From the NCBI GenBank assembly GCA_024711145.1, contig JANJTJ010000121.1, positions 1 through 62,029 of the forward strand: 62,029 nt of DNA, read 5' to 3'. The stretch comes from Balneolales bacterium. Its GTDB lineage: Bacteria; Bacteroidota; Rhodothermia; Balneolales; HLUCCA01. The notes under the pieces were generated by a model. The model worked only from the letters and a program-made list of their open reading frames with translations, ran no database searches and was not told the origin of the DNA. Numbering within the stretch: position 1 is the first letter of the stretch; every line of letters begins with the position of its first letter. Position numbers and translations under genes: made by a program. Positions 2 through 48,958 of the stretch are shown here, one piece after another.

Positions 2-2362
2 CCCGTCATGGATGTGAACAACAACCCCCGCAACCCGGTGATCAACACACGCAGCTATTCCGAAGATCCCGCAACGGTCACCCGGTTCGGTGTCGAATTC
101 CTCAAGGGGGTGCAGGCCACGGGTCTGGTGGCCACCGTCAAACATTTTCCCGGGCACGGAGACACCGACGTCGATTCCCATATCGGCCTTCCGGTCATCA
201 ACCATGACCGGGCCCGTCTGGACAGCGTGGAACTGGTGCCCTTCCGGGCCGCCATCGCCGCCGGTGTGGGCAGCGTGATGAGCGCGCATATCGTCTTCCC
301 GAAACTGGGTAGCGAGCCCGGTTTGCCCGGCACCCTGGACCCCAACATCCTGACCAAACTCCTGCGCGAAGACCTGGGGTTCACCGGTCTGGTGACCACC
401 GACGCCCTGGAGATGGAGGGTGTGTCGGAGCATTTCAGTCCGGGCGAGGCCCTCACCCGCGCCCTGTTGGCCGGCGCCGACATGCTGCTGCTGCCGCCCG
501 ATGTGGCAACCGCACTGGACGGTGCCGTTGCAGCCGTGGAGAGCGGACGCATCCCCATGGCCCGTCTGGATGAAAGCGTGCGGCGCATGCTGGAGTGGAA
601 AGCCCGGTTGGGCCTGTTCGAAAGCGACAACCAGGTGGATGTGCACACCCTGAGCTCGCGCATCGCCACACCCGAATACGAAGCCGCCGCCGACCGCATG
701 GCCGAGGCATCCATGACCCTGCTGAAGAACGACGGCGGCATTCTGCCCATCCGGGCCGACCGCTACCGCCGCATCCTGGCCGTGGTGGTGAGCGACGACC
801 GCAGCGGTACGGCGGGCCAGACCTTCGCCCGCGACCTGCGCGCCATGCATCCCAATGTCAATTTCCAGCTCTATGATCCCCGCACCTCCGAAGTGGAGTT
901 GGACCGCATCATCGCGGCGGCCGACAACGCCGACCTGGTGATCGCCGCCACCTACATGTCGGTCCGCACCGGCTCCGGGTCAATCTCCATGTCGCCCGCC
1001 CAGAACCGGTTCCTCAACCGGCTCGAAGCCAAGGGCAAACCCGTGGTGTTAGTGGCCTTGGGCAACCCCTACGTGGTGGGCGACCTGCCCCAGGCCGAAG
1101 TGCACCTGTTGGGTTGGGCCTCGCACAACCGGCAGAACACGGCAGCCGTGAACGCCCTCTTCGGCGCGTCGGCCATTACGGGCCGCCTGCCCATCAGCTT
1201 GCCCAACACGCCCTACAATCGCGGAGCCGGCATCACCCTGCCGGCATCGCGGCTGCGTACGGCCACCCCGGCCGCCGCCGGCCTCCACGCCGACTCTTTG
1301 GCCGGCATCGGCCGCATCATGGAGCAGGCCGTGCGCGACCGCGTGTTCCCCGGTGGCACCGTCACCGTGGTCAAGGACGGCCGCATCGCCTACTCCCAAG
1401 GCTTCGGGTATTTCGATTACGAGAAGACGCGTCCCGTGCGGACCTCCGACATCTACGACCTGGCCAGCATCAGCAAGGTGATGGGGACCACCCTGGCCGT
1501 GATGAAACTGGTGGATGAGGGCAAACTGCGCCTGGAAGATCCCATCAGCACCTGGATTCCCGAATATGCCACCGGAGAAAAGGCCAAGATCACCGTCTGG
1601 CATTTTCTCACGCATACCTCCGGCCTGCCGCCCTTCCGCGTGTATGTGGACCAATTGCGCACCCGCGACGCCCTCTTCCAGGCCATCCGCAACGAACCCC
1701 TCACCGGCACTCCCGGCGAAGCCTATGTCTATTCCGATCTGGGCCTGATCCTGCTCGGGCAGATCATCGAAACCATCACGGGCAAACGGCAGGACCAATA
1801 CCTCGAAGAAACCTTCTATGCGCCCCTGGGCCTGCGGTCCACCATGTACAATCCCCTACAGCGGGATCCGCGCTTGCTCGATCGCATTCCTCCCACCGAA
1901 AACGACACCATCCATCGGAAAGCCTGGGTGCGTGGCGTGGTGCACGACGAACGCGCCTACTACCTGGACGGAGTGGCCGGGCATGCCGGACTCTTCTCCA
2001 ACGGAGGCGACCTGGCCGTACTGGCCCAGCTCTTCCTGAACGGCGGCACCTATGGCGGAACCCGCTACCTGAGCGAGGCCGTGGTGGACCGGTTCACCGC
2101 CCGCGGTTCCCAACCGGGACGCCGGGGCATCGGGTTCGACATGAAATCGCTCAGTGGTTTCACCACCGCCGGTCGTCTGGCCTCCGATGCCACCTATGGG
2201 CATACCGGGTTCACCGGAACCAGCATCTGGATCGATCCGGAACAGGACCTGACGGTGATCGTGCTCACCAACCGCACCTATCCGTTCCGGGCCAACGCCT
2301 CAGCCGTCAGTCGGGTACGGGCCTCGGTGGCCGAAACCGTATACCGGAGCCTGGTCCGATGA
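2..2362 (+). CDS. nagZ: GH3 beta-N-acetylglucosaminidase (NagZ-type) fused to a C-terminal beta-lactamase-fold serine hydrolase (AmiE-like); 5' end lies outside the window
   Basis: NagZ signature KHFPGHGDTDVDSH and TDAL nucleophile region. GH3 C-domain is followed by SxxK (LASISKVM), YSDLG and HTGFTG motifs. Frame is open to the window edge (PVMDVNNNP is an internal GH3 motif). Confidence 0.9.
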   Translation, partial: PVMDVNNNPRNPVINTRSYSEDPATVTRFGVEFLKGVQATGLVATVKHFPGHGDTDVDSHIGLPVINHDRARLDSVELVPFRAAIAAGVGSVMSAHIVFPKLGSEPGLPGTLDPNILTKLLREDLGFTGLVTTDALEMEGVSEHFSPGEALTRALLAGADMLLLPPDVATALDGAVAAVESGRIPMARLDESVRRMLEWKARLGLFESDNQVDVHTLSSRIATPEYEAAADRMAEASMTLLKNDGGILPIRADRYRRILAVVVSDDRSGTAGQTFARDLRAMHPNVNFQLYDPRTSEVELDRIIAAADNADLVIAATYMSVRTGSGSISMSPAQNRFLNRLEAKGKPVVLVALGNPYVVGDLPQAEVHLLGWASHNRQNTAAVNALFGASAITGRLPISLPNTPYNRGAGITLPASRLRTATPAAAGLHADSLAGIGRIMEQAVRDRVFPGGTVTVVKDGRIAYSQGFGYFDYEKTRPVRTSDIYDLASISKVMGTTLAVMKLVDEGKLRLEDPISTWIPEYATGEKAKITVWHFLTHTSGLPPFRVYVDQLRTRDALFQAIRNEPLTGTPGEAYVYSDLGLILLGQIIETITGKRQDQYLEETFYAPLGLRSTMYNPLQRDPRLLDRIPPTENDTIHRKAWVRGVVHDERAYYLDGVAGHAGLFSNGGDLAVLAQLFLNGGTYGGTRYLSEAVVDRFTARGSQPGRRGIGFDMKSLSGFTTAGRLASDATYGHTGFTGTSIWIDPEQDLTVIVLTNRTYPFRANASAVSRVRASVAETVYRSLVR

Positions 2363-3039
2363 GCGGATGGGACCTGCTCCGGACGCGTGCCTATGTGCCG
2401 TATTCGGGTGTGCCCGAACTGGCGGTGGCCGTCGGCAACGACGGCCGCAGGTACCCCGGGGTACGGGTGGAAAACGCCAGTTTTCCGCTCACCATCCATG
2501 CCGTGCAGGCCGCCCTGTTCGGGTGCATGGCCAACGGGGCCGAACCGGTAGCCGTGCTCCTGCCACCCGGGGTGGACCTCGAAGCGGCCGGCCGGTGGGG
2601 TTGGCCCGTACAGACCGTGGAAACCCTGTCCAGCCGGTTCGCGGAGGTCGTCAAGCCGGAACCGGGCGACCCTCAAGTGCTAAAAACCCGGGCCGTGGTA
2701 CCACATAGCTCCTTTCCCGTGGTGGCCTTCGTGCGCTACGAGGCGGGCTGGATCACCGGTGTGAACATCGAGGTGCCCGATTGGCAGCTCGGCCTGTGCG
2801 CCGAACGCATCGCCATTGCCATCGGCTACGCCCATGGCCTGGGCGCCCCGCTCGAGTGGGACATCCACGCCTTCCGGGGCGACTTCATCTCCCCATGCGG
2901 GGCATGCCGACAGGTGTTGGCCGAACACGGCCGCAACAACCGGGTACGCCTGCACCATCCCGACGGCAGCATGAGCGACCACTCCGTGGCCGACCTCCTT
3001 CCCCACTCCTTTTCGGGCTCGCACCTGCGAATCGGTTGA
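2359..3039 (+). CDS. cdd: Cytidine deaminase with a tandem-duplicated domain (N-terminal copy degenerate)
   Basis: RAYVPYS...VENAS in the N-half; CAER and PCGACRQ zinc motifs in the C-half; ATGA overlap with the upstream gene. Confidence 0.85.
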   Translation: MSGWDLLRTRAYVPYSGVPELAVAVGNDGRRYPGVRVENASFPLTIHAVQAALFGCMANGAEPVAVLLPPGVDLEAAGRWGWPVQTVETLSSRFAEVVKPEPGDPQVLKTRAVVPHSSFPVVAFVRYEAGWITGVNIEVPDWQLGLCAERIAIAIGYAHGLGAPLEWDIHAFRGDFISPCGACRQVLAEHGRNNRVRLHHPDGSMSDHSVADLLPHSFSGSHLRIG

Positions 3040-3040
3040 C

Positions 3041-3586
3041 ATGACCCTCCTGCTCGTGCTCGATGCCGCCCATGCGGCCAGTCCCTTGTTCATGAAAGCC
3101 TTCGGCCAGGCCTTGCAAGGTCTGAAAACCTATCAGGTGGCCATTGTACACACCGGTGGCGCCTACACCGAGCAGCTCATCCAAACCGGCCTCATGCGCC
3201 GCGAAGCCGAAGTGCGCGCCCAACGCGAAACCAACCGCAAGCTCATCACCTGGTTGGCCGATTACGGCCTGGCCTGCAGTGGCCTGCATGGAGACCAACG
3301 CGGGTTGGTCCGCCGGACACCGACCGGCATCCAGGTGAATGCCCTTGCCCTGGGGCCGGCCCATGCCGGGGTGGTCCGCATCTGTTCCACCCTCATCGTG
3401 GGTGCCGATGGCGGCTCGGAGCCGCTTCCGCTGGCCGAAGCCGTGCGCCTTTGGGAAACCCATCTGCCCGCCGATCAGGTCGTCGTTTACCGCCTCACCG
3501 GCGATGCGGGGAACCCCGTTCCCGAAGAAATGAGGGCCTACGCGCACCCTTACCGCCTCACCGACCCCTTCCAAACAGCCGTTTGA
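3041..3586 (+). CDS. Amino-acid-kinase-fold (ArgB-like) protein, probably degenerate
   Basis: VAIVHTGG...RETNRKLITWL...SGLHGDQRGL resembles the VVVHGGG/N-x-x-L/GLSGxD segments of acetylglutamate kinase, but only 181 aa; starts 1 nt after cdd. Confidence 0.5.
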   Translation: MTLLLVLDAAHAASPLFMKAFGQALQGLKTYQVAIVHTGGAYTEQLIQTGLMRREAEVRAQRETNRKLITWLADYGLACSGLHGDQRGLVRRTPTGIQVNALALGPAHAGVVRICSTLIVGADGGSEPLPLAEAVRLWETHLPADQVVVYRLTGDAGNPVPEEMRAYAHPYRLTDPFQTAV

Positions 3587-38750: not shown

Positions 38751-40070
38751 TTGGATACCCCGCTCTCCGCCCGCCACGCCTCCGTCCTCGTGCTCACCCG
38801 TTTCGACGAAACGCAGCACCTGGACCTGCACATCCTCGACGAACTGACCGGACCCGACCGAGGCCAAGGCCAGGAGTACGTCCAGGGAATCCTGCGCCGC
38901 CGCAGCAGCCTCGATTTCCTCATCCAGCAATTCAGCTCGGTGCCCTTCGCCGAAATGGACGGGTTCTTCAAAAACGTACTCCGGGTGGGGATCTACGACC
39001 TGTTGTACATGGACAGCACGCCCGATTACGCCGCCCTGAACGAGGCCGTCGAGATCGTCAAGACCCGCATGGGTCAGAAATCGGGTGATGTGGTCAATGC
39101 CATCCTGCGTCGGGTACAGCGCGAAGCGCAGAATCTGCCCAAACCCGACCCCGAAAACCGCACGCATCTGGTTTCGGTCACCTTCTCCCACCCCGAGTGG
39201 TTGGTGGAACGGTGGACCAACCGCATGGGCGAGCGCGACGCGTTCCTGCTCATGCAGGCCAACAACCGCCGCCCCGAGTATTTCCTGCGGGTGAACACCC
39301 TCAAGACCTCGATCGAGAATTTCCGCCTGCGCCTGGAGAAAAGCGGCATCGCCTTCGAAGAGAGCGATTGGTTGCCCGGTTACTTCAAGGTGCAGCAATT
39401 GGCCGAAGTGCGCACCAAAGGCTGGTTCGACAAAGGCCTGGTGCAGGTTCAGGACATCGCCGCCGGGTTCGCCCCCTTCGTGCTCGATCCCAAACCCGGC
39501 GAAACCGTGTACGACATCTGCGCGGCACCCGGCACCAAGACCATCGTCATGGCCGGCATGATGGAGAACCAGGGCAGCATCCTGGCCATCGACATCAACG
39601 GAGACCGGATCTCCAAGATCGCCGAGAATTCCGAGAACTACGGGGCCGACATCGTGAAAATCCGTCGGGCCGACGCCCGCGAGGAGCGCTTCAAGCTGGC
39701 CGATGCCGTCCTGCTCGACGCCCCCTGCACGGGTACCGGCGTGCTGAGCAAACGGGCCGACCTCCGCTGGCGCCGCAGCCCCTCCGACCTGGAGCAGATC
39801 GTAAAGACCCAGGCCGAACTGCTCGACGCCGCCGCCAACATGGTATCGAAGGGCGGCCGTCTGGTGTACACCACCTGCTCGCTGGAACCCGAAGAGAACA
39901 TCGAGCAGATCCACAACTTCCTGAGCGAATACGACAACTTCGAGATGATGCCCTTGGGTGATTATCTGCCCGAAGAGGTATTGGCCGAAGACGGATACGC
40001 CTACCAGACCTGGCCCCACAAACACCATTGCGACGGCCACTTCGGCGTACTTCTGAAACGCGTGGTCTGA
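38751..40070 (+). CDS. rsmB: 16S rRNA m5C967 methyltransferase (NusB-like N-domain + RsmB)
   Basis: DICAAPGTKT, LDAPCTGTG, YTTCSLEPEEN; TTG start. Confidence 0.9.
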   Translation: MDTPLSARHASVLVLTRFDETQHLDLHILDELTGPDRGQGQEYVQGILRRRSSLDFLIQQFSSVPFAEMDGFFKNVLRVGIYDLLYMDSTPDYAALNEAVEIVKTRMGQKSGDVVNAILRRVQREAQNLPKPDPENRTHLVSVTFSHPEWLVERWTNRMGERDAFLLMQANNRRPEYFLRVNTLKTSIENFRLRLEKSGIAFEESDWLPGYFKVQQLAEVRTKGWFDKGLVQVQDIAAGFAPFVLDPKPGETVYDICAAPGTKTIVMAGMMENQGSILAIDINGDRISKIAENSENYGADIVKIRRADAREERFKLADAVLLDAPCTGTGVLSKRADLRWRRSPSDLEQIVKTQAELLDAAANMVSKGGRLVYTTCSLEPEENIEQIHNFLSEYDNFEMMPLGDYLPEEVLAEDGYAYQTWPHKHHCDGHFGVLLKRVV

Positions 40071-40071
40071 C

Positions 40072-42741
40072 ATGGCTGAGATTCCCAAGCAATTCGAACC
40101 GGGGCCGGTCGAACGCCATTGGTATGCCCATTGGGAAACGAACGGCTTCTTCCGGTCCACGCCCGACGACCGCCCCCCGTTCACCATCCTGATTCCGCCC
40201 CCCAACGTCACCGGGGTGTTGCATATGGGCCACATGCTCAACAACACCCTGCAGGATGTGCTGGTGCGCCGGGCGCGCATGCGCGGTTTCAATGCCTGCT
40301 GGGTACCCGGTACCGACCACGCCTCCATCGCCACCGAGGCCAAAGTGGTGCAGAAACTCCGCAAGGAAGGCATCCGCAAGGGCGACCTCACCCGCGACGA
40401 GTTCCTCAAGCATGCCTGGGAATGGACCGAAAAGCATGGCGGCATCATCCTGCAGCAATTGCGCACGCTCGGTGCCAGCTGCGATTGGGACCGCACCCGG
40501 TTCACCATGGAGCCCTCGCTCTACGATGCCGTAATCGATTGCTTCATCGACCTGCACGACCGCGGCCTCATCTACCGGGGCCTGCGCATGGTCAACTGGG
40601 ATCCCGAAGCCCGCACCGTGGTTTCCGACGAAGAAGTGCTCCACAAGGAGACCACCGCTACCCTGTACCACATCCGGTATCCGCTCACCGACGGCAGCGG
40701 CCATGTGACCATCGCCACCGTGCGGCCCGAGACCATCATGGCCGACACGGCCGTGGCCATCCATCCCGATAACCCGAAAACGGCCCATCTGAAAGGGAAA
40801 CGGGTACGCATTCCCCTCATCGACCGGGAAATCCCCATCATCGAGGATGCCTACGTGGATCCGGAGTTCGGCACCGGCGCCCTGAAGGTGACACCCGCCC
40901 ACGACAAGAACGATTTCGAAATCGGCACGCGGCACGGGTTGGAGGTGATCGACATCCTGAACGCCGACGCCACTCTGAACGAAAAAGCCCGCATTCTGGT
41001 CGGGCAAGACCGATTCGCCGCCCGCAAAGCCATCGTTCCCCTGTTGCAGGAAGGCGGGTTCCTGGACAAGACCGAGGAGTACGCCTCCAACCTGGCCCTG
41101 TCGGAACGTACCGAAGCCGTCATCGAACCCCGGTTGTCCCTGCAATGGTTCGTGAAGATGCAGGAGCTGGGCAAACCCGCTCTGGATGCCGTGGTGAACG
41201 GCGAAGTGCGGTTCCACCCCGCCAAATTCACCAACACCTACCGGCATTGGATGGAGAACATCCAGGATTGGTGCATCTCGCGCCAGCTCTGGTGGGGCCA
41301 CCGCATTCCGGCCTGGTTCTATGGTGAGGGCGAACAGGACTATGTGATCGCCCGCACCGAAGCCGAAGCCCTGGAGATGGCCCGCGCCAAAACCGGCAAC
41401 CCGGAGCTGGATGCCATGCGCCTGCGGCAGGACGAGGACGTGCTCGATACCTGGTTCTCCTCCTGGTTGTGGCCCATCAGCGTGTTCGACGGGTTCAAAG
41501 ACCCCGACAACCGGGACATCCGCTACTATTACCCCACGAACGACCTGGTAACCGCACCCGAGATCATGTTCTTCTGGGTGGCGCGCATGATCATGGCCGG
41601 CTACGCCTTCAAAGGGCAGGCTCCCTTCCGGAATGTGTATTACACCGGCATCGTGCGGGACAAGCAACGGCGGAAGATGTCCAAGTCCTTGGGCAACTCG
41701 CCCGACCCGCTGGACCTCATCGCCCAGTACGGCGCCGACGGAACCCGGGCCGGCATGCTCTTCAGTTCGCCGGCCGGCAACGACCTGCTCTTCGACGAGG
41801 GATTGGTGGAACAGGGGCGGAATTTCGCCAACAAGATCTGGAACGCCTTCCGATTCATCACCATGCAGATGGAGGATGGCCGTGCCTATGTACCGAACGC
41901 CGTGTTCGACGAAACCGATCCCACCGACCGCTGGATGCGATCGCGGGTGGCACGCACCTTCGCCGAAATGGACAAGGCCTTCGAGGAGTACCGCATCAGC
42001 GACGCCTTGCACGGCATCTACAAACTGATCTGGGACGACTTCTGCGATTGGTACATCGAGCTGAACAAACCCGCCTACGGCACCCGGATGGCGCCGGCCG
42101 TTGTCGAGAAGCTGCTCGGCGTATTCGAGTTGCTCATGGCCCGGCTGCATCCCTTCATGCCCTTCATCACCGAGGAGATCTGGCACCGTTTGCGCGAGCG
42201 CGGTACCGGCGAAGCCCTGATGATGGCGGCCGAACCGGCCGGCGATCCGGCCTGGATATCGGATGAGGCGGAAACCGCCTTCGCCCTGCAGCAGGAACTG
42301 GTAAGCGTGCTGCGGAACATCCGCGCCGAAAAGGGCGTGGCCAATGCGCACCCCATCCGGGTGGTCATCTCCACGGCCGATGCCGCCACATTGGCAGGCT
42401 TGCAAGCCGGCCGCGCCATCCTCGAACGCCTTCAGAAAACCGAATCGTTGGATATCGGCATCGGGCTGGCCAAACCCAGAGGCAGCACCACCGTGGTTTT
42501 GCGCGGGTTGGAAGTGCATGTCCCCCTGGAAGGATTGGTGGATCTGGATGCCGAACGGGAGCGCATCTCCAAAGAAATCGAGCGGTTGGAAGGATTCCTG
42601 GCATCCGTTCGGACCAAACTGGGCAATGCGTCCTTCGCGGAGCGGGCACCGGCCGCCATCGTGGAAAACGAACGGAACAAGGAACGCGACGCCACCGCCA
42701 GTCTCGGGAAGCTGCGCGCCCTGCTCGACGACCTCGGTTGA
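40072..42741 (+). CDS. valS: Valine--tRNA ligase
   Basis: PPPNVTGVLHMGH, PGTDHA, DWCISRQLWWGH, KMSKS, C-terminal coiled coil. Confidence 0.99.
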   Translation: MAEIPKQFEPGPVERHWYAHWETNGFFRSTPDDRPPFTILIPPPNVTGVLHMGHMLNNTLQDVLVRRARMRGFNACWVPGTDHASIATEAKVVQKLRKEGIRKGDLTRDEFLKHAWEWTEKHGGIILQQLRTLGASCDWDRTRFTMEPSLYDAVIDCFIDLHDRGLIYRGLRMVNWDPEARTVVSDEEVLHKETTATLYHIRYPLTDGSGHVTIATVRPETIMADTAVAIHPDNPKTAHLKGKRVRIPLIDREIPIIEDAYVDPEFGTGALKVTPAHDKNDFEIGTRHGLEVIDILNADATLNEKARILVGQDRFAARKAIVPLLQEGGFLDKTEEYASNLALSERTEAVIEPRLSLQWFVKMQELGKPALDAVVNGEVRFHPAKFTNTYRHWMENIQDWCISRQLWWGHRIPAWFYGEGEQDYVIARTEAEALEMARAKTGNPELDAMRLRQDEDVLDTWFSSWLWPISVFDGFKDPDNRDIRYYYPTNDLVTAPEIMFFWVARMIMAGYAFKGQAPFRNVYYTGIVRDKQRRKMSKSLGNSPDPLDLIAQYGADGTRAGMLFSSPAGNDLLFDEGLVEQGRNFANKIWNAFRFITMQMEDGRAYVPNAVFDETDPTDRWMRSRVARTFAEMDKAFEEYRISDALHGIYKLIWDDFCDWYIELNKPAYGTRMAPAVVEKLLGVFELLMARLHPFMPFITEEIWHRLRERGTGEALMMAAEPAGDPAWISDEAETAFALQQELVSVLRNIRAEKGVANAHPIRVVISTADAATLAGLQAGRAILERLQKTESLDIGIGLAKPRGSTTVVLRGLEVHVPLEGLVDLDAERERISKEIERLEGFLASVRTKLGNASFAERAPAAIVENERNKERDATASLGKLRALLDDLG

Positions 42742-42744
42742 CCC

Positions 42745-45700
42745 ATGTCGGATCTGCATTTCCTCCAACAGCTGAACGGACCCCAGCGGGAGGCGGTCGT
42801 CCACGTGCACGGCCCCCTGCTGCTGGTGGCGGGTGCGGGGTCGGGCAAAACCCGGGTACTCACCTATCGCATCGCGCATCTGTTGGGAGCCGGGCACGCG
42901 CGGCCGTCCCAGATCCTGGCGCTCACCTTCACCAACAAGGCCGCGGCCGAAATGAAGGAGCGTATCGGCCACCTGATCGGCACGGACGCCCGCCATCTGT
43001 GGATGGGCACCTTCCACAGCATCTTCAGCCGAATCCTGCGGGTTGAAGCCGAACATCTGGGATATACCCGCGATTTCAGCATTTACGATACCGACGACAG
43101 CGACAAGGTGGTGAAGGGCATCCTGCAGGAACTGAAGTTGGATGCCAAGGAAGTGAAGCCCTCCCAGATCCGATTCCGCATCTCCGGAGCCAAAAACCGC
43201 ATGGTGGGGCCGGAGGAATATGCCACCGAGTTCATCGGCTCCACCCTCGACGACATCGCCGCGCAGGTGTATCCCATCTATCTGGCCCGCCTCAAAGAGC
43301 GGAATGCCATGGATTTCGACGACCTCCTGCTCAAGCCCATCGAGCTGTTCGAAGCCCGGCCCGACATCCTCGAACAATACCAGGACCGGTTCCGATTCAT
43401 CCTCATCGACGAATACCAGGACACGAACAAGGCCCAATACGTCGTTACCCGCATGCTCGGGTCCAAGCACCACAACGTGTGCGTGGTCGGCGACGACGCC
43501 CAGAGCATCTACTCCTTCCGCGGGGCCGACATCACCAACATCCTCAACTTCCAGGCCGATTATCCCGATGCCACCCGCATCGCCCTGGAGCAGAACTACC
43601 GCAGCACCAAGGCCATCCTGCGCTGTGCCGACAGCATCATCAAGCGGAACACCAAACAGCTCGACAAGACCCTCTGGACCGAGAATCCGGTAGGCAACCC
43701 GATCGTGACCTTCGAGACCTTCACCGAGCGGGAAGAAGCCTACAAAGTGGCCGACACCATCCGCCAGCTGAAGCTGCGCGACGGGTACAGGAACACCGAC
43801 ATCGCCATCCTGTACCGGACCAACCACCAGAGCCGGGTGTTCGAAGACGCCCTCCGCCGGGCCGACATCACCTACCAATTGGTGGGTGGGGTCTCCTTCT
43901 ACCAGCGCAAGGAAGTGAAGGATGTGACCGCCTACCTGCGACTGCTCATCAACCCGGCCGACGAGGAAGCCCTGCTCCGGGTGATCAACGAACCGGCCCG
44001 GGGCATCGGGGGCAAATCGTTGGAGACCCTGGTGGAACTGGCACGTGGCCACCGCACCTCGCTTTGGGAGGTGCTGCACCAGCCCGGCCAGTTGGAAAGC
44101 GTGTACAAGCCCGCCCAGGCCCGCATCCGCGAGTTCACCGAAATCATCCGCGAGACGGCCGGAAAACTGCAGGCCGGCGGTTCGATCGTGGATACCGCCC
44201 GGTTCCTATTGGAAAAGACCGGCTACGTGCGCCAGTTCGTGGAAGAGAACACGGCCGAGTCGCTGGGTCGGCGCGAGAACGTGATGGAGCTGCTCAACTC
44301 CATCGCCTACTTCGAACGGAGCAACGAGCAACCGACCCTCAGCGGATTCCTGCAGGAGGTATCGCTCCTGAGCGATGTGGACAACATGGACACCGACAAA
44401 CCGGCGGTGACCCTGATGACCGTACACGCCGCCAAGGGGTTGGAATTCCCTGTGGTGTTCGTGGTGGGGTTGGAAGAGGAACTCTTTCCCATCGGCGGGC
44501 GGAACGGCGAGGAAGCCGACATCGAGGAAGAGCGGCGCCTGTTCTATGTGGCGGTGACCCGGGCCCGCAAGGAGCTCTTCTTCTCGCACGCCCGCACCCG
44601 TTTCCGGTACGGCGAAGAGAAAACCATGCTGCGCAGCCGCTTCCTGGACGAAGTGGATCCGGCCGTCATCCGCTCGGAAAGCGGCGCCACCCTACGCCAG
44701 CGGAGCGACACCATCCGTCAGACCCCTTCCGGCAACCGCATCGAGTACGATACCCCGAGTCGGAGCGTACGTCCGCCGGTGGCGGCGCGCCCACCTGCCA
44801 GCAACACCCGTGTGGAATACGACCTGGCCGAACCCGGCCAACTGGTACCCGGGGCCAAAGTGCAGCACGAAACCTTCGGCAGCGGCAAGATCATCGCACG
44901 CGAAGGCCAGGGAAGCGATACCAACGTCACCGTCTTCTTCGCCGCACACGGTACCAAGAAACTCCTGCTCCGGTTCGCCAAACTGCGGTTGCTGCCGTTC
45001 CTGCTGCTGGCCCTGCTGGCCGGCAACCTGATGGCCCAACCCACCTTCTCGCCCCGCATGACGGCCATGGGCGGTGCCGCCACCGCCATAGCCGAAGGGG
45101 TACCGGCCGCCTACCTGAACCCGGCCAACCTCATGATCCGCAACCATGCCCAAGGCTTCATGCTGTATGCCGGGCAGGCCTCGTTCTCCTGGTCCGACGG
45201 CCTGTTGGCCGGTGCGGCCGGTACCGAGGCCGGCGACATGACCTGGACCTTCCGGCCGTGGACCGACCGGGCGCCGGCCTATCTGACGGCCGACACCGAC
45301 GCCGCCATCCTGGCCGAACGCTACCCCGGCGGTGCCGGCACGGCCGTTTCGCACAGCACCTTCGACCATCTGGCCTTCGGCATGAGCTGGACCGGGCCGA
45401 ACCTGGGTTGGGCCCTGGGCTGGCGCATCCGCGGCACCAACACCTGGGAGACGGGCCGCGCCTGGTACGAGGGTCCTGCGGCCGCCGCCGCTACCGACGC
45501 CAGCCTGAAACAACGCACCGCGGTATGGCACGAGGTATCGCTCGGCCTGGCCTGGGAGTACACCCTCATCAGCGGATGGCTCACCAATCTGAGCAAGCTC
45601 TTCGTAGGGGTCAATCCCAAATTCATCATTCCGGGCGCCTACGTGGACCGCTCCCTGGTGTCGGTGTACGGTATGGGCGCTGGCGGACCCATCCATACGG

Positions 45701-46404
45701 GCGCCTACAGCCAGCTCTCTTCGGGGCCGACCCGCCCGACCTCCTTGCAGGAATGGCTCACCCCCACCGGATTCGGTGCGGGCATGGACATCGGTGCCAC
45801 CTACATCATCGGGTTGGGCAACGAACAATCCTTGGGATCGGCACGGCGCCGGCCCACGCGCAACTCCATCCGCATATCGGCGGCCCTCACCGACCTCGGC
45901 TTCGTGAGCCATACGGCCGCCCCCATGCGCCTCACCACCGACACGCTGCGCACCGACGCCACCTGGTCGCGCCAGGGCAGCGGCGAGTTCTATGGGGCAC
46001 CCGGCCAGTTCGATGCCTTCGTGTCGGCCCAACCCGTGGAATCCGGCCTCATCGCCACTGCCGATACCGGTGCCACCTCCCCCATCAACCTGCAGATGCC
46101 CACCCGTTTCCAAACCGGTGTGGCCCTTCAGCTCAACCGCATGCTGCTCTCGGCCGACATGGCCATGCCCCTGACCGAAGACGGCATCCGCGGTTCCCAG
46201 CGTTACCTGCGCGCCGGCGCCGAAATCAAACTGCTGCGCGTGTTGCCCGTGCGCGCGGGGTTGGTGCTGCGTGATGGAGACCCGCTCACCTACACGGCCG
46301 GTTTCGGCCTGGACCTGCGCCATCTCGAACTCGCCATAGGCACCCAATGGACCGCTTCCGATCCCATCGGGGTGGCCGTGGGCGGGTTGGTGCTGCGGTT
46401 CTGA
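42745..46404 (+). CDS. pcrA: PcrA/UvrD helicase (aa 1 to about 749) fused in frame to a signal-peptide-like segment and a FadL/PorV/DUF5723-like outer-membrane beta-barrel (about aa 765-1219)
   Basis: AGAGSGKT, DEYQD, GDDAQSIY, NYRS, TVHAAKGLEF, EERRLFYV, Tudor-like CTD (HETFGSG...KKLLLRFAKL); no stop before PFLLLALLAGNLMAQ; then MGGAATAIA...AYLNPANL and a terminal Phe. Confidence 0.85.
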   Translation: MSDLHFLQQLNGPQREAVVHVHGPLLLVAGAGSGKTRVLTYRIAHLLGAGHARPSQILALTFTNKAAAEMKERIGHLIGTDARHLWMGTFHSIFSRILRVEAEHLGYTRDFSIYDTDDSDKVVKGILQELKLDAKEVKPSQIRFRISGAKNRMVGPEEYATEFIGSTLDDIAAQVYPIYLARLKERNAMDFDDLLLKPIELFEARPDILEQYQDRFRFILIDEYQDTNKAQYVVTRMLGSKHHNVCVVGDDAQSIYSFRGADITNILNFQADYPDATRIALEQNYRSTKAILRCADSIIKRNTKQLDKTLWTENPVGNPIVTFETFTEREEAYKVADTIRQLKLRDGYRNTDIAILYRTNHQSRVFEDALRRADITYQLVGGVSFYQRKEVKDVTAYLRLLINPADEEALLRVINEPARGIGGKSLETLVELARGHRTSLWEVLHQPGQLESVYKPAQARIREFTEIIRETAGKLQAGGSIVDTARFLLEKTGYVRQFVEENTAESLGRRENVMELLNSIAYFERSNEQPTLSGFLQEVSLLSDVDNMDTDKPAVTLMTVHAAKGLEFPVVFVVGLEEELFPIGGRNGEEADIEEERRLFYVAVTRARKELFFSHARTRFRYGEEKTMLRSRFLDEVDPAVIRSESGATLRQRSDTIRQTPSGNRIEYDTPSRSVRPPVAARPPASNTRVEYDLAEPGQLVPGAKVQHETFGSGKIIAREGQGSDTNVTVFFAAHGTKKLLLRFAKLRLLPFLLLALLAGNLMAQPTFSPRMTAMGGAATAIAEGVPAAYLNPANLMIRNHAQGFMLYAGQASFSWSDGLLAGAAGTEAGDMTWTFRPWTDRAPAYLTADTDAAILAERYPGGAGTAVSHSTFDHLAFGMSWTGPNLGWALGWRIRGTNTWETGRAWYEGPAAAAATDASLKQRTAVWHEVSLGLAWEYTLISGWLTNLSKLFVGVNPKFIIPGAYVDRSLVSVYGMGAGGPIHTGAYSQLSSGPTRPTSLQEWLTPTGFGAGMDIGATYIIGLGNEQSLGSARRRPTRNSIRISAALTDLGFVSHTAAPMRLTTDTLRTDATWSRQGSGEFYGAPGQFDAFVSAQPVESGLIATADTGATSPINLQMPTRFQTGVALQLNRMLLSADMAMPLTEDGIRGSQRYLRAGAEIKLLRVLPVRAGLVLRDGDPLTYTAGFGLDLRHLELAIGTQWTASDPIGVAVGGLVLRF

Positions 46405-46513: not shown

Positions 46514-48958
46514 ATGCGCGCTTCCCATCCGTTCCGCTTCTCCGAAGAAGAATTCTCCGATTTCGAGCAGGCCATCCCCTTGTTGTCGGAAGAAGAGGAA
46601 CGCCGCCTCGACGAATCGGGTGTGCCCGACGAACTGCCCATCCTTCCCCTCAAGAACACCGTGCTGTTTCCCGGTGTGGTCATTCCCATCACCGTGGGCC
46701 GCGACCGCAGCCTGGAGCTCGTGAAACGGGCCTTCGAGAGCGACAAAGTGATCGGTATCGTGACCCAGAAGAAGAAGAACCAGGAAGATCCGGGGCCGGA
46801 CGACCTCTACCGGGTCGGTACCGTGGCCCAGATCCTCAAGCTCATCAAGATGCCCGATGGTTCGAAAAGCATCGTGATCCAGGGCAAATCGGTCTTCTCC
46901 ATCGACGAATTCACCCAGACCGAACCGTATTTCAAAGCCAAAGTGAGCCGGTTCCGGAACATGCAGGACATGGACGCCCTGGAGTTGGATGCCGCCATGC
47001 GCAGCGTGAAGGAGACCGCCGTTCAGATCGTCAACGCATCGCCCCAGTTGCCATCCGAAGCGGCCATCGCCATCCACAACATCACCTCGGCCACCTTCCT
47101 GCTCAACTTCATCGCCTCCAACCTCAACATCCCCAACGAGGAGAAGCAGAAACTCCTGGAGATGGCCAGTTACCGGGAGCGCCACGGCCGCATCATGGAC
47201 CATCTGAACCGGGAGCTGCAGGTCATGAACCTGAGCCAGGAGATCCGGTCCAAGGTGAAGACCGACATCGACCAGCAGCAGCGCGATTTCTACCTGCGCC
47301 AGCAGCTCAAAGTGATCCAGGAAGCCCTGGGCGACGAAAGCGAGCAGGAAGTGGTGCAGAAACTCCGCGAGAAAGCCGCCACCAAGAAATTGCCCGACCA
47401 CGTGGCCAAAACCTTGGACAAAGAGCTCACCCGCCTGGAACGTACCCCGACCAGCGCCCCCAACTACGGAGTGATCCACAACTACGTGGAGTGGATCATG
47501 GATCTGCCCTGGTTGGAATACAGCCTGGACAAACTGGACCTGAAGTATGCGGCCAAGGTGCTGGACGAAGACCATTACGGCCTGGAGAAAGTCAAAAAGC
47601 GCATACTGGAGTATCTGGCCGTCCTGAAACTGAAGGGCGACATGAAAGCGCCCATCCTGTGCCTGTACGGCCCGCCCGGCGTGGGCAAAACCTCCCTGGG
47701 CAAATCGATCGCACGGGCGCTGAATCGCGAATTCACCCGGTTCTCGTTGGGCGGCCTGCAGGATGAGGCCGAAATCCGCGGCCACCGGCGCACCTACATC
47801 GGCGCCCTTCCCGGCCGCATCGTGCAGAGTCTGAAAAAGACCGGCACGGCCAACCCCGTCATGATGCTCGACGAGATCGACAAAGTGGGTGCCAGCTACC
47901 GCGGCGACCCCACCTCCGCCCTGCTCGAAGTGCTCGATCCCGAGCAGAACCACGCCTTCCACGACAACTACATGGAGCTGGACATCGACCTGAGCAAGGT
48001 GCTGTTCATCGCCACGGCCAACAGCTTGGACACCATCCCCGGCCCCCTGCGCGACCGCATGGAGATCCTGAACCTGAGCGGCTACACCCTCGAGGAGAAA
48101 CTGCAGATCGCCAAAACCTATCTGGTACCCAAGCAGATCACCGAAAACGGGTTGGTCAAAAAACAATTCCGCATCAGCGATGCGGCTGTTACGGCCATCA
48201 TCGACGGGTACACCCGCGAGTCGGGCGTACGGAACCTGACCCGCGAAATCGGGTCGGTGGTGCGGGGCGTGGCCGCGAAAATCGCGGCCGAAGACATCAC
48301 GGCCGCCTCGGTCGGGGTGGACGACATCGAAGGCTACCTGGGGCAGCGCAAGTATTTCAGCGATGTGGCCGAGCGCACCACGGTACCCGGTGTGGCCACC
48401 GGCCTGGCCTGGACCCCCTTCGGTGGCGACATCCTCTTCATCGAAGCCGGTGCCACACCCGGCACCGGCAAAATGACCATCACCGGGCAATTGGGAGATG
48501 TGATGAAGGAATCGGCCGTGCTGGCCCTCTCCTACCTCAAGGCCCATGCCGATGACCTGAAGATTCCGCAGGACGCTTTCACCAAATGGGACCTGCACCT
48601 GCACGTGCCGGCGGGTGCCGTGCCCAAAGACGGCCCATCGGCCGGTGTGAGCATGTTGTCGGCCATGACCTCCCTGTTCACCCAGCGCCCGGTCAGGAAT
48701 ACCGTAGCCCTCACCGGCGAAATCACGCTGCGGGGATTGGTGTTGCCCGTGGGCGGCATCAAGGAGAAAGTACTGGCGGCCCGGCGGGCCGGCATCACCC
48801 ACGTGCTGCTTCCCAAAAAGAACCAGAAGGACGTGGCCGAAATCGAAGCCGATGTGATCGACGGGTTGCAGATCTCCTATCTGGAGCGCATGGACCAGGT
48901 CTTCAAGCTGGTCTTGGAACCCAAAGCCGTGGCCGACCCGGCCCGCATGTTCACATGA
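46514..48958 (+). CDS. lon: ATP-dependent protease La
   Basis: LPILPL N-domain, GPPGVGKTS, MLDEIDK, PKDGPSAG, GGIKEK. Confidence 0.98.
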   Translation: MRASHPFRFSEEEFSDFEQAIPLLSEEEERRLDESGVPDELPILPLKNTVLFPGVVIPITVGRDRSLELVKRAFESDKVIGIVTQKKKNQEDPGPDDLYRVGTVAQILKLIKMPDGSKSIVIQGKSVFSIDEFTQTEPYFKAKVSRFRNMQDMDALELDAAMRSVKETAVQIVNASPQLPSEAAIAIHNITSATFLLNFIASNLNIPNEEKQKLLEMASYRERHGRIMDHLNRELQVMNLSQEIRSKVKTDIDQQQRDFYLRQQLKVIQEALGDESEQEVVQKLREKAATKKLPDHVAKTLDKELTRLERTPTSAPNYGVIHNYVEWIMDLPWLEYSLDKLDLKYAAKVLDEDHYGLEKVKKRILEYLAVLKLKGDMKAPILCLYGPPGVGKTSLGKSIARALNREFTRFSLGGLQDEAEIRGHRRTYIGALPGRIVQSLKKTGTANPVMMLDEIDKVGASYRGDPTSALLEVLDPEQNHAFHDNYMELDIDLSKVLFIATANSLDTIPGPLRDRMEILNLSGYTLEEKLQIAKTYLVPKQITENGLVKKQFRISDAAVTAIIDGYTRESGVRNLTREIGSVVRGVAAKIAAEDITAASVGVDDIEGYLGQRKYFSDVAERTTVPGVATGLAWTPFGGDILFIEAGATPGTGKMTITGQLGDVMKESAVLALSYLKAHADDLKIPQDAFTKWDLHLHVPAGAVPKDGPSAGVSMLSAMTSLFTQRPVRNTVALTGEITLRGLVLPVGGIKEKVLAARRAGITHVLLPKKNQKDVAEIEADVIDGLQISYLERMDQVFKLVLEPKAVADPARMFT

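Follow-up and report, generated by a model that had tools for sequence, protein, structure and literature searches.

A helicase gene and the gene for an outer-membrane protein form one open reading frame in the 62,029-nt stretch of DNA analysed here (the window), and we tentatively propose, at rather less than even odds, that the sole PcrA/UvrD-type helicase found in the genome and a beta-barrel are made as one chain that would be split by signal peptidase at the inner membrane. The ORF listing showed that the frame at 42745-46404 on the plus strand encodes 1219 aa from an ATG start to a TGA stop, and that it runs on past the pcrA C-terminus, without a stop codon, into the barrel part. The frame comprises, in order, a PcrA/UvrD helicase (aa 1 to about 750), a Sec-type signal segment (L747-A764) and a 455-aa DUF5723 barrel. 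The DNA at the junction reads AAA CTG CGG TTG CTG CCG TTC CTG CTG CTG GCC CTG CTG GCC GGC AAC CTG ATG GCC CAA CCC, and the junction-spanning peptide of the fused frame is LLPFLLLALLAGNLMAQPTFSPR. The initial annotation had described an in-frame fusion of pcrA, signal and barrel over this interval, which was borne out by the ORF listing, the junction DNA and the Pfam and NCBIfam domain limits; it had also correctly placed CTG 44983 at codon 747, TTG 44989 at codon 749 and the beginning of Q765 at 45037. In annotation, the fused frame should not be thrown out as a frameshift or an assembly error, and labelling it a plain 1219-aa helicase would not do either. Its features, including the codon alleles in the public runs with contigs crossing the junction (X1, X2, X3, X5, X6, X7, X9 and X10), are as follows:

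42745 to 44994, plus strand: PcrA/UvrD-type SF1 helicase part, aa 1-750, delimited by Pfam, TIGR01073 and relatives' C-termini.
44983 to 45036, plus strand: Sec-type signal segment L747-A764, LRLLPFLLLALLAGNLMA, from orthologue alignment and hydrophobicity; putatively cleaved.
44983 to 44985, plus strand: codon 747, CTG, after AAA; matches the position of the sister genus's TTG start, its use as a start being speculative.
44989 to 44991, plus strand: codon 749, TTG, the sole canonical in-frame start candidate ahead of the signal h-region.
45004 to 45006, plus strand: codon 754, polymorphic, within the h-region; CTG (Leu) in the window, X1 and X9, ATG (Met) in X2, X3, X5 and X7, CTA (Leu) in X6 and X10.
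45037 to 46404, plus strand: mature DUF5723 outer-membrane beta-barrel Q765-F1219 with TGA, from PF18990, homologues, AlphaFold2 and Foldseek.

The pcrA ATG lies 3 nt past the valS stop. Pfam showed that the helicase part carries the SF1A helicase domain set at full length, namely the N-terminal UvrD-helicase domain (PF00580, aa 10-274, E = 5.6e-91), UvrD_C (PF13361, aa 279-617, E = 6.2e-76) and the C-terminal PcrA/UvrD tudor domain (PF21196, aa 703-745, E = 7.4e-9), and the Walker A motif GAGSGKT can be read from the sequence. Model positions 1-722 of 725 of the NCBIfam pcrA model TIGR01073 align to aa 6-745, nearly to the model end, implying that the helicase normally ends about 3-5 residues further on; relatives' PcrA C-termini (...FAKLRIL) resemble it as far as L750. 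Since the scores were under the equivalog cut-offs (826.5 bits against 911.2 for pcrA, 630 against 1144 for uvrD), we assign the protein to the PcrA/UvrD type of helicase and not to a strict equivalog. No other UvrD/PcrA/Rep-type gene was found in the genome, whose completeness is 90%.

The most hydrophobic 15-mer in the entire 1219-aa protein is formed by residues 749-763, and L747-A764 can be aligned position by position to the 18-aa signal peptides at the N-termini of orthologues, MKYILLLYLCGWASIVSA/QP and MKSLSLLFAILTAGMLHA/QP (the slash marks the cut). Judged by eye and by homology, the segment has basic K746 and R748 on its N side, a 12-residue h-region, LLPFLLLALLAG, and a c-region N-L-M-A followed by Q, the predicted cut being LMA/Q765; Leu at -3 and Ala at -1 also occur in orthologue P0001 (SLHA then Q). 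After a cut at A764, the barrel would begin QPTFSPR. Gln at +1 of the predicted cut site is common to all orthologues and agrees with the Bacteroidetes Q-rule (PMC5837995). In position the segment departs from an N-terminal Sec signal, for it occupies ORF residues 747-764 if translation does not begin at TTG 44989 or CTG 44983. A good start codon has been lost: CTG occupies the ancestral start position, and a start at the TTG two codons on would yield MLPFLLLALLAGNLMA before Q, a signal of 16 aa without a basic residue.

The barrel part consists of 455 aa and ends in Phe (...GGLVLRF). The DUF5723 model PF18990 scored 31.4 bits against a Pfam gathering cut-off of 26.8 in a partial match (201-306 of 376), and a profile search of the genome also put the barrel over the PF18990 cut-off; among 27 stand-alone barrel homologues of 413-596 aa, PF18990 is annotated in 24. 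AlphaFold2 modelled the part as a beta-barrel (pLDDT 77.6, pTM 0.79), for which the best Foldseek matches were BamG, TodX and FadL at probability 1.0 and TM 0.40-0.54 (TodX, TM 0.44-0.54, probability 1.0), and the barrel profile matched the TodX N-terminus (E = 3e-4). A Pfam search of the fused protein gave no match to Toluene_X (PF03349). From the model, the barrel is predicted to have the FadL/TodX fold, so that the initial label 'FadL/PorV-type' stands at the level of fold but gives way at the level of family to DUF5723, which is neither PorV nor BamG. A PorV/PorQ identity was rejected, as NF033709 scored 21.7 bits against a cut-off of 90, through the N-terminal motif only, and PorV chain 6h3i_F gave E = 0.24. 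BamG was the top Foldseek match (nearest entries 9hiv_F, 9n2d_B and 9hjm_F) with a TM of only 0.41-0.51; this identity was rejected because BamG is a FadL/Toluene_X family member (PMC12578637), the barrel belongs to DUF5723, and the BamG chains gave no sequence match. The barrel shares with FadL/TodX and its Bacteroidota branches BamG and PorV the predicted FadL/TodX-like barrel and a hatch-like N-terminal motif, but unlike FadL/TodX and BamG its sequence family is DUF5723, not Toluene_X. Elsewhere the genome holds a separate PorV-like gene (contig C39) adjoining a putative porU-like gene, and another FadL-like gene.

A comparison with relatives, which the initial annotation had proposed, showed that pcrA and the barrel gene are separate in all 25 Balneolales relatives in which pcrA precedes the barrel gene, each keeping the pcrA stop (26 loci were examined; at the 26th no pcrA tail was seen). 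The stop in relatives falls 3-5 codons past the A-x-L motif, and the barrel gene, which comes after pcrA across the whole order, has its own signal. In the sister genus, a spacer of 13-33 nt follows the pcrA stop and leads to the TTG start of the barrel gene, whose 18-aa signal aligns with L747-A764. Compared with the relatives, about 30-50 nt are absent from the fused frame, comprising the last pcrA codon(s), the stop, the spacer and the barrel start codon. A single deletion between two short stretches of similar sequence is the probable cause, since the PcrA end (...K-L-R-I/L-L) and the start of the barrel signal (M-K/R-x-L) make a TGCGG-type microhomology possible. No fused form was seen among the best 150 of 347 family matches in 1.84 billion protein representatives, all of which were at most 596 aa, and proteins of 670-2133 aa yielded no barrel-region matches. 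Open-frame lengths of 1250-1355 aa in several relatives were considered as further fusions and rejected, being read-through lengths with real stops present. On this sequence comparison, the fusion is lineage-specific, occurring in one uncultured Balneolales species.

The explanation that we consider best as a whole has, in our estimate, a probability of about 0.5. Its preferred route, to which we give slightly less than that, is that the fusion would insert N-in/C-out by its internal signal and that signal peptidase I would free the barrel. Each ribosome translating pcrA would continue into the barrel, and the emerging L747-A764 would be targeted to SecYEG in the fashion of a type-II signal anchor, with K746 and R748 holding the folded helicase in the cytoplasm while the barrel part is threaded across. 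Because the h-region has a length of only about 12 residues and the c-region N-L-M-A/Q is like the cut sites of orthologues, signal peptidase I would be expected to cut after A764. The released barrel precursor, starting at Gln at the same aligned position as the orthologues, would then go to BAM, and PcrA would be left with 18 hydrophobic residues at its C-terminus, a tail that would hold it at the inner membrane either transiently or stably. This route may be supplemented or replaced by internal initiation at TTG 44989. In Bradyrhizobium, cytochrome b/c1 is made as the polyprotein FbcH, which is cleaved at an internal signal peptide, and type-II (N-in) membrane proteins such as ToxR, CadC and RseA insert routinely although their N-domains in the cytoplasm are large; a literature search on FbcH and bacterial internal signal peptides returned nothing usable. 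A 746-aa folded domain preceding a signal is only a putative substrate, which counts against the processing route. Tethering the sole PcrA/UvrD helicase to the membrane might be expected to harm repair, and the route is weakened by a DUF5723 paralogue, which could compensate if the fused copy were silent.

The main rival, which we consider less probable than the processing route but more probable than the other alternatives, is that the barrel is instead made separately by initiation within the frame, at TTG 44989 or, with lower likelihood, CTG 44983, or at ATG 45004 in Met-754 strains. Ribosomes initiating at pcrA would then give PcrA with a 470-aa unfolded tail that is tolerated, degraded or also processed. 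The sister genus starts its barrel gene with TTG within 13-33 nt of the pcrA stop, TTG makes up about 13% of constrained starts in the genome, and Shine-Dalgarno-like motifs are not enriched at the genome's starts (12.5% versus 13.7% inside genes). Since TTG is the native start type in the sister genus and the genome does without Shine-Dalgarno use, internal initiation would need no special signal; by the same token, Shine-Dalgarno analysis cannot tell the two routes apart. No strong RNA structure lies over the site (z = -0.62), RNA folding across the junction showed nothing unusual, codon 754 is ATG in four of the eight junction-crossing runs, and purifying selection on the barrel is equally compatible with a separate start. 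However, the TTG-started signal would lack a basic n-region, unlike every orthologue (M-K/R...), the pre-sequence of the ATG-754 product would have only 11 residues, and the site lies within a translated GC-rich ORF with no promoter-like site nearby, and no internal promoter emerged from a sigma-70 scan or from searching for the Bacteroidota -7 motif (TAnnTTTG). In addition, as there is no stop codon, the fusion protein would be made anyway even with an internal start, which counts against this route.

Strain polymorphism showed that purifying selection acts on both halves of the frame. The PcrA part carries 9 synonymous SNPs and 1 non-synonymous SNP (pN/pS 0.04, p = 2e-5), and the 15 SNPs of the barrel comprise 8 synonymous and 7 non-synonymous ones (pN/pS 0.31, p = 0.024). 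The 455-aa barrel frame is unbroken and indel-free in every strain and retains all 100+ columns that are invariant among its 19 aligned homologues. The initial annotation had offered signal-peptidase processing and an internal TTG/CTG start as two of its three options, between which sequence data do not discriminate; with both halves under purifying selection, one of the two routes, or both, probably works. It is improbable, clearly more so than an internal start, that the deletion silenced the barrel and that the fusion is a fixed neutral or slightly harmful lesion, an early-stage pseudogene, with PcrA functioning despite a useless, degraded tail and the DUF5723 paralogue taking over the lost role. 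Such decay would be consistent with the confinement of the fusion to one lineage, with the normal ATG start and signal of the paralogue (contig C98), and with the higher pN/pS in the barrel than in PcrA; however, the intact frame, the synonymous excess and the retention of every family-invariant residue argue against it, a pN/pS of about 0.3 is usual among outer-membrane proteins, and the strains with the fusion have already diverged by about 0.7%.

The junction is real DNA and not an assembly error. It was found gap-free in assembled contigs of eight public runs from five studies, three of the runs being metatranscriptomes, and contigs from different runs carry different linked strain SNPs. 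In the assembled contigs, no allele other than the fused one was seen in samples of sediment, wastewater and soil; these are Logan contigs, which lose rare variants, hence a minor unfused allele is possible. Low-share soil runs, searched for unfused alleles and closer relatives, returned only fused same-species contigs or unrelated fragments. That the true genome keeps a stop and spacer that were lost by the assembler is hardly credible, for although the genome comes from a metagenome bin of 138 contigs, all runs differ from the window at 44785 and inspection was at the level of assembled contigs, the eight runs were assembled separately, there is no 31-mer repeat at the junction to cause a collapse, and the same-species contigs have no loose ends there. 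The initial annotation had listed a sequencing or assembly error together with a recent stop-loss as one option: the recurrence of the junction across runs and studies contradicts the error, and the stop-loss is right in spirit, although it took the form of the lineage-specific deletion of about 30-50 nt and not of a point mutation.

If the chain is cut by signal peptidase, it would be a clean natural case in which the unfused ancestral state is known in every relative. It would mean that a Sec signal peptide can still be targeted and cleaved far inside a protein, behind a 746-residue cytoplasmic enzyme, that a helicase can gain a C-terminal membrane tether, and that genes adjacent in an operon can become fused almost without cost even when their products belong to different compartments. 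It would also bear on how gene callers and signal-peptide predictors handle such ORFs, and would invite the question whether PcrA/UvrD tethered to the membrane still fulfils its repair and transcription-coupled functions. If the internal TTG start is used, the locus would be a functional gene nested in frame within a longer ORF, and this in a lineage that initiates translation without Shine-Dalgarno sequences.

The two-gene loci of other Balneolales (e.g. MAG JBGTBY010000038, Gracilimonas, Balneola and Fodinibius roseus) have the same gene pair, order and strand as the fused locus, the PcrA end ...FAKLRIL, an 18-aa barrel signal with an A/Q cut motif, and the barrel's MGG...NPANLMIRNH motif and terminal Phe. 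They differ in having a pcrA stop, a spacer (from 13 nt up to about 300 nt, or some 1.5 kb with room for an extra gene) and a barrel start, which is TTG in the sister genus, with ATG, TTG or GTG candidates further out. The route proposed here is that of Bradyrhizobium japonicum FbcH, in which the downstream part of one ORF is freed at an internal signal-like segment. FbcH is conserved and joins two membrane-bound partners of one complex, whereas the present fusion, for which cleavage is predicted, joins a soluble helicase to an unrelated outer-membrane protein in one species.

The ORF listing showed a single open reading frame carrying a PcrA helicase and an outer-membrane barrel, and direct reading of the junction DNA (...GCC AAA CTG CGG TTG CTG CCG TTC CTG CTG CTG GCC CTG CTG GCC GGC AAC CTG ATG GCC CAA CCC...) confirmed that, as the initial annotation had stated, no stop follows the PcrA C-terminus. 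The features are:

42745..46404, + strand: fused ORF, 1219 aa, ATG start, TGA stop (ORF listing)
aa 10-274, + strand: UvrD-helicase domain (Pfam)
aa 279-617, + strand: UvrD_C domain (Pfam)
aa 703-745, + strand: PcrA/UvrD Tudor domain (Pfam)

These domains, together with alignment of positions 1-722/725 of the NCBIfam pcrA model with aa 6-745, show that the helicase part is complete, its expected end lying a few residues past aa 745. No UvrD/PcrA/Rep-type gene other than pcrA was found in the 90%-complete bin. The pcrA ATG lies 3 nt past the valS stop (42741-42745), a spacing that makes it probable that valS, pcrA and the barrel gene form a single transcription unit; lon comes next, at 46514, beyond a 109-nt gap. 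Position 44785 falls in the Pro-rich linker of PcrA (...VRPPVAARPPAS...); here the window reads G (GCG, Ala681) against C (CCG, Pro) in all covering runs (X1, X2, X3, X11), the G probably reflecting a rare allele or a consensus/polishing error of the bin. Long frames overlying valS and pcrA (39691-44079, - strand, 1462 aa; 43479-46274, + strand, 931 aa) were rejected as genes, since they are shadow frames that arise over GC-rich coding sequence.

The bin to which the window belongs, as contig C96, comprises 138 contigs and 2.3 Mb and is 90% complete. Logan contigs of eight public runs were found to cross the junction without a gap.

Public runs whose Logan contigs cross the junction, with the allele of codon 754 (45004-45006)
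X1: sediment, study P1; CTG (as in the window)
X3: sediment, study P1; ATG
X2: wastewater, study P2; ATG
X5, X7: metatranscriptomes, study P4; ATG
X9: metatranscriptome, study P1; CTG
X6: study P5; CTA
X10: soil, study P3; CTA

Linked SNPs differ among these contigs, indicating different strains that were independently assembled, and no insertion, joint or same-species loose end was present at 44983-45036 in any run's contigs. This makes an assembly artefact very unlikely, and the sequencing or assembly error considered earlier was not borne out. As the evidence consists of assembled contigs, a rare unfused allele may exist in the population.

Across 31 genomes from this family and order, the barrel gene invariably lies downstream of pcrA. 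Junctions were read at 26 loci titled Balneolales, Balneolaceae, Balneola, Gracilimonas or Fodinibius, and a PcrA tail was found in 25. In all 25, pcrA and the barrel gene are separate ORFs, pcrA having its own stop 3-5 codons past an A-x-L motif (e.g. ...FAKLRILQ*), which makes the fusion the derived state. The gap from this stop to the barrel gene is 13 to about 300 nt, or about 1.5 kb (room for one extra gene), the pairing being syntenic but sometimes not directly adjacent; the 1.5-kb spacing marks one Balneolales subgroup (L028, L030-L034, L038, L039). In the sister genus (47-49% identity by genome search; L015-L018) a TTG located 13-33 nt past the pcrA stop is the start codon of the barrel gene, which encodes an 18-aa signal (MKYILLLYLCGWASIVSA/QP, MKSLSLLFAILTAGMLHA/QP; slash, cleavage site). 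Gene callers usually miss this TTG, and many database entries begin at an internal MGG, leaving truncated signal peptides in public annotations. No barrel-region match was found among proteins of 670-2133 aa, and the fused form was absent among the best 150 of 347 matches (1.84 billion representatives), all ≤596 aa; within these sets the fusion has no second example in the barrel's family.

No other 15-mer of the protein is as hydrophobic as residues 749-763 (LLPFLLLALLAGNLM). L747-A764 (LRLLPFLLLALLAGNLMA/QP) pairs residue for residue with the sister-genus signals when right-aligned at the cleavage site, CTG 44983 occupying the start-codon position and R748 the K/R position. F744-L750 (FAKLRLL) also matches the relatives' PcrA tail FAKLRIL, and since the two alignments overlap, four junction codons are attributable to either gene. 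About 30-50 nt of the relatives' sequence is absent here, the simplest reading being a single deletion between short similar sequences; this origin is inferred, as no unfused relative is closer (best protein-database homologue 44% identical). Of the recent stop-loss proposed initially, the loss of the relatives' stop stands as a derived change, its origin being read as this deletion. Three alleles occur at codon 754, midway along the h-region; the commonest among the sampled runs is ATG, which provides an in-frame ATG but a pre-sequence of only 11 residues. By a rough estimate, the chance that about 26 SNPs would hit the same codon twice is about 0.27, so the double change is statistically unremarkable.

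Fusion of genes by intergenic deletion is ordinary. What is unusual is the pairing of an outer-membrane barrel with a soluble DNA helicase, and that this leaves the barrel's signal peptide intact mid-protein. At the DNA level the fusion is real and clean; it is known from one species, and its ancestral state is well defined.

SNPs that distinguish the window from other strains were classified. The PcrA part has 9 synonymous and 1 non-synonymous SNPs (pN/pS 0.04; p = 2e-5) and the barrel part 8 and 7 (pN/pS 0.31; p = 0.024, few sites); contigs from the X6/X10 search added one synonymous change in the barrel part. Neither half contains an indel or stop in any strain, and all 100+ columns invariant across 19 aligned homologues are kept in the window's barrel. 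Because the fusion is common to strains about 0.7% apart, these data indicate that both halves have been under selection since the fusion, the barrel test resting on few sites.

Since the junction has no stop, ribosomes started at pcrA must translate into the barrel. The preferred, still tentative, reading (probability about 0.45) is that signal peptidase processes the fused chain. The internal signal would be targeted on emergence from the ribosome, K746 and R748 would keep the N-side cytoplasmic while the barrel part is translocated, and signal peptidase I would cut after A764. This site is predicted from an h-region of ~12 residues, a c-region N-L-M-A/Q like the orthologue S-L-H-A/Q, and a +1 Gln that fits the Bacteroidetes Q-rule (PMC5837995). 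The products would be a barrel precursor beginning at the orthologues' aligned Gln position and PcrA with an 18-residue hydrophobic tail. The deletion would then be nearly neutral, in keeping with its fixation and with continued selection on both halves. Precedents include FbcH, a cytochrome b/c1 polyprotein, and ordinary type-II membrane proteins whose cytoplasmic N-domains are large.

Internal initiation at TTG 44989, a canonical start as in the sister-genus barrel gene, is a less probable source of the barrel: RNA around the junction is not unusually structured and Shine-Dalgarno sequences are unenriched in this genome (12.5% upstream of starts vs 13.7% within genes), but the resulting signal (MLPFLLL...) would lack the basic residue present in all orthologues, and no promoter-like site was found near the junction. 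It can coexist with signal peptidase processing of the fused chain. A silent, decaying barrel copy whose loss is compensated by a DUF5723 paralogue is improbable. This paralogue (L041, G000:C98, 3111-4655, 514 aa) begins normally, with ATG and a signal (MKRILFLLPLLAIATIVTA/QP); directly ahead of it is a 763-aa protein whose N-terminus is lipoprotein-like, their identical frame being due to chance.

The last 473 aa of the fused ORF, ending ...LVLRF and so confirming the terminal Phe noted initially, match DUF5723 (PF18990) above the Pfam cut-off. In a 5.8-billion-protein set, 27 homologues were found, all stand-alone (413-596 aa), and 24 carry the PF18990 annotation. The AlphaFold2 model of the tail (25 input sequences; pLDDT 77.6, pTM 0.79) is a beta-barrel, with top Foldseek matches in the PDB to BamG (9hiv_F, 9n2d_B, 9hjm_F), TodX and FadL (probability 1.0, TM 0.40-0.54). 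The family profile matches the TodX N-terminal hatch region (E = 3e-4) and barely matches PorV (E = 0.24). Family matches, predicted fold and profiles together suggest that the tail is an outer-membrane barrel in family DUF5723 of the FadL superfamily. The initial 'FadL/PorV-type' assignment thus holds for the predicted fold but not for PorV identity, which was rejected because the NCBIfam PorV_fam match is weak and confined to the N-terminal GG...NPAN motif and a separate PorV-like gene exists elsewhere in the genome. That gene and its possibly PorU-like neighbour occupy 844-2052 (- strand) and 2000-3319 (- strand) of another contig (L044, G000:C39); the barrel (weak Toluene_X match; signal MKKILIPTLLTLATAPVLTA/Q) lies immediately downstream of this large neighbour, which by eye looks PorU-like with a T9SS-type C-terminal domain, and a type IX secretion system may be present. 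The genome also has another FadL-like gene. BamG is a Bacteroidota BAM subunit of the Toluene_X family (PMC12578637, PMC12611786); no sequence match between the tail and the BamG chains was found, and BamG identity was likewise rejected. The tail thus resembles BamG, its top Foldseek match, in fold, whereas the two differ in family, Toluene_X versus DUF5723.
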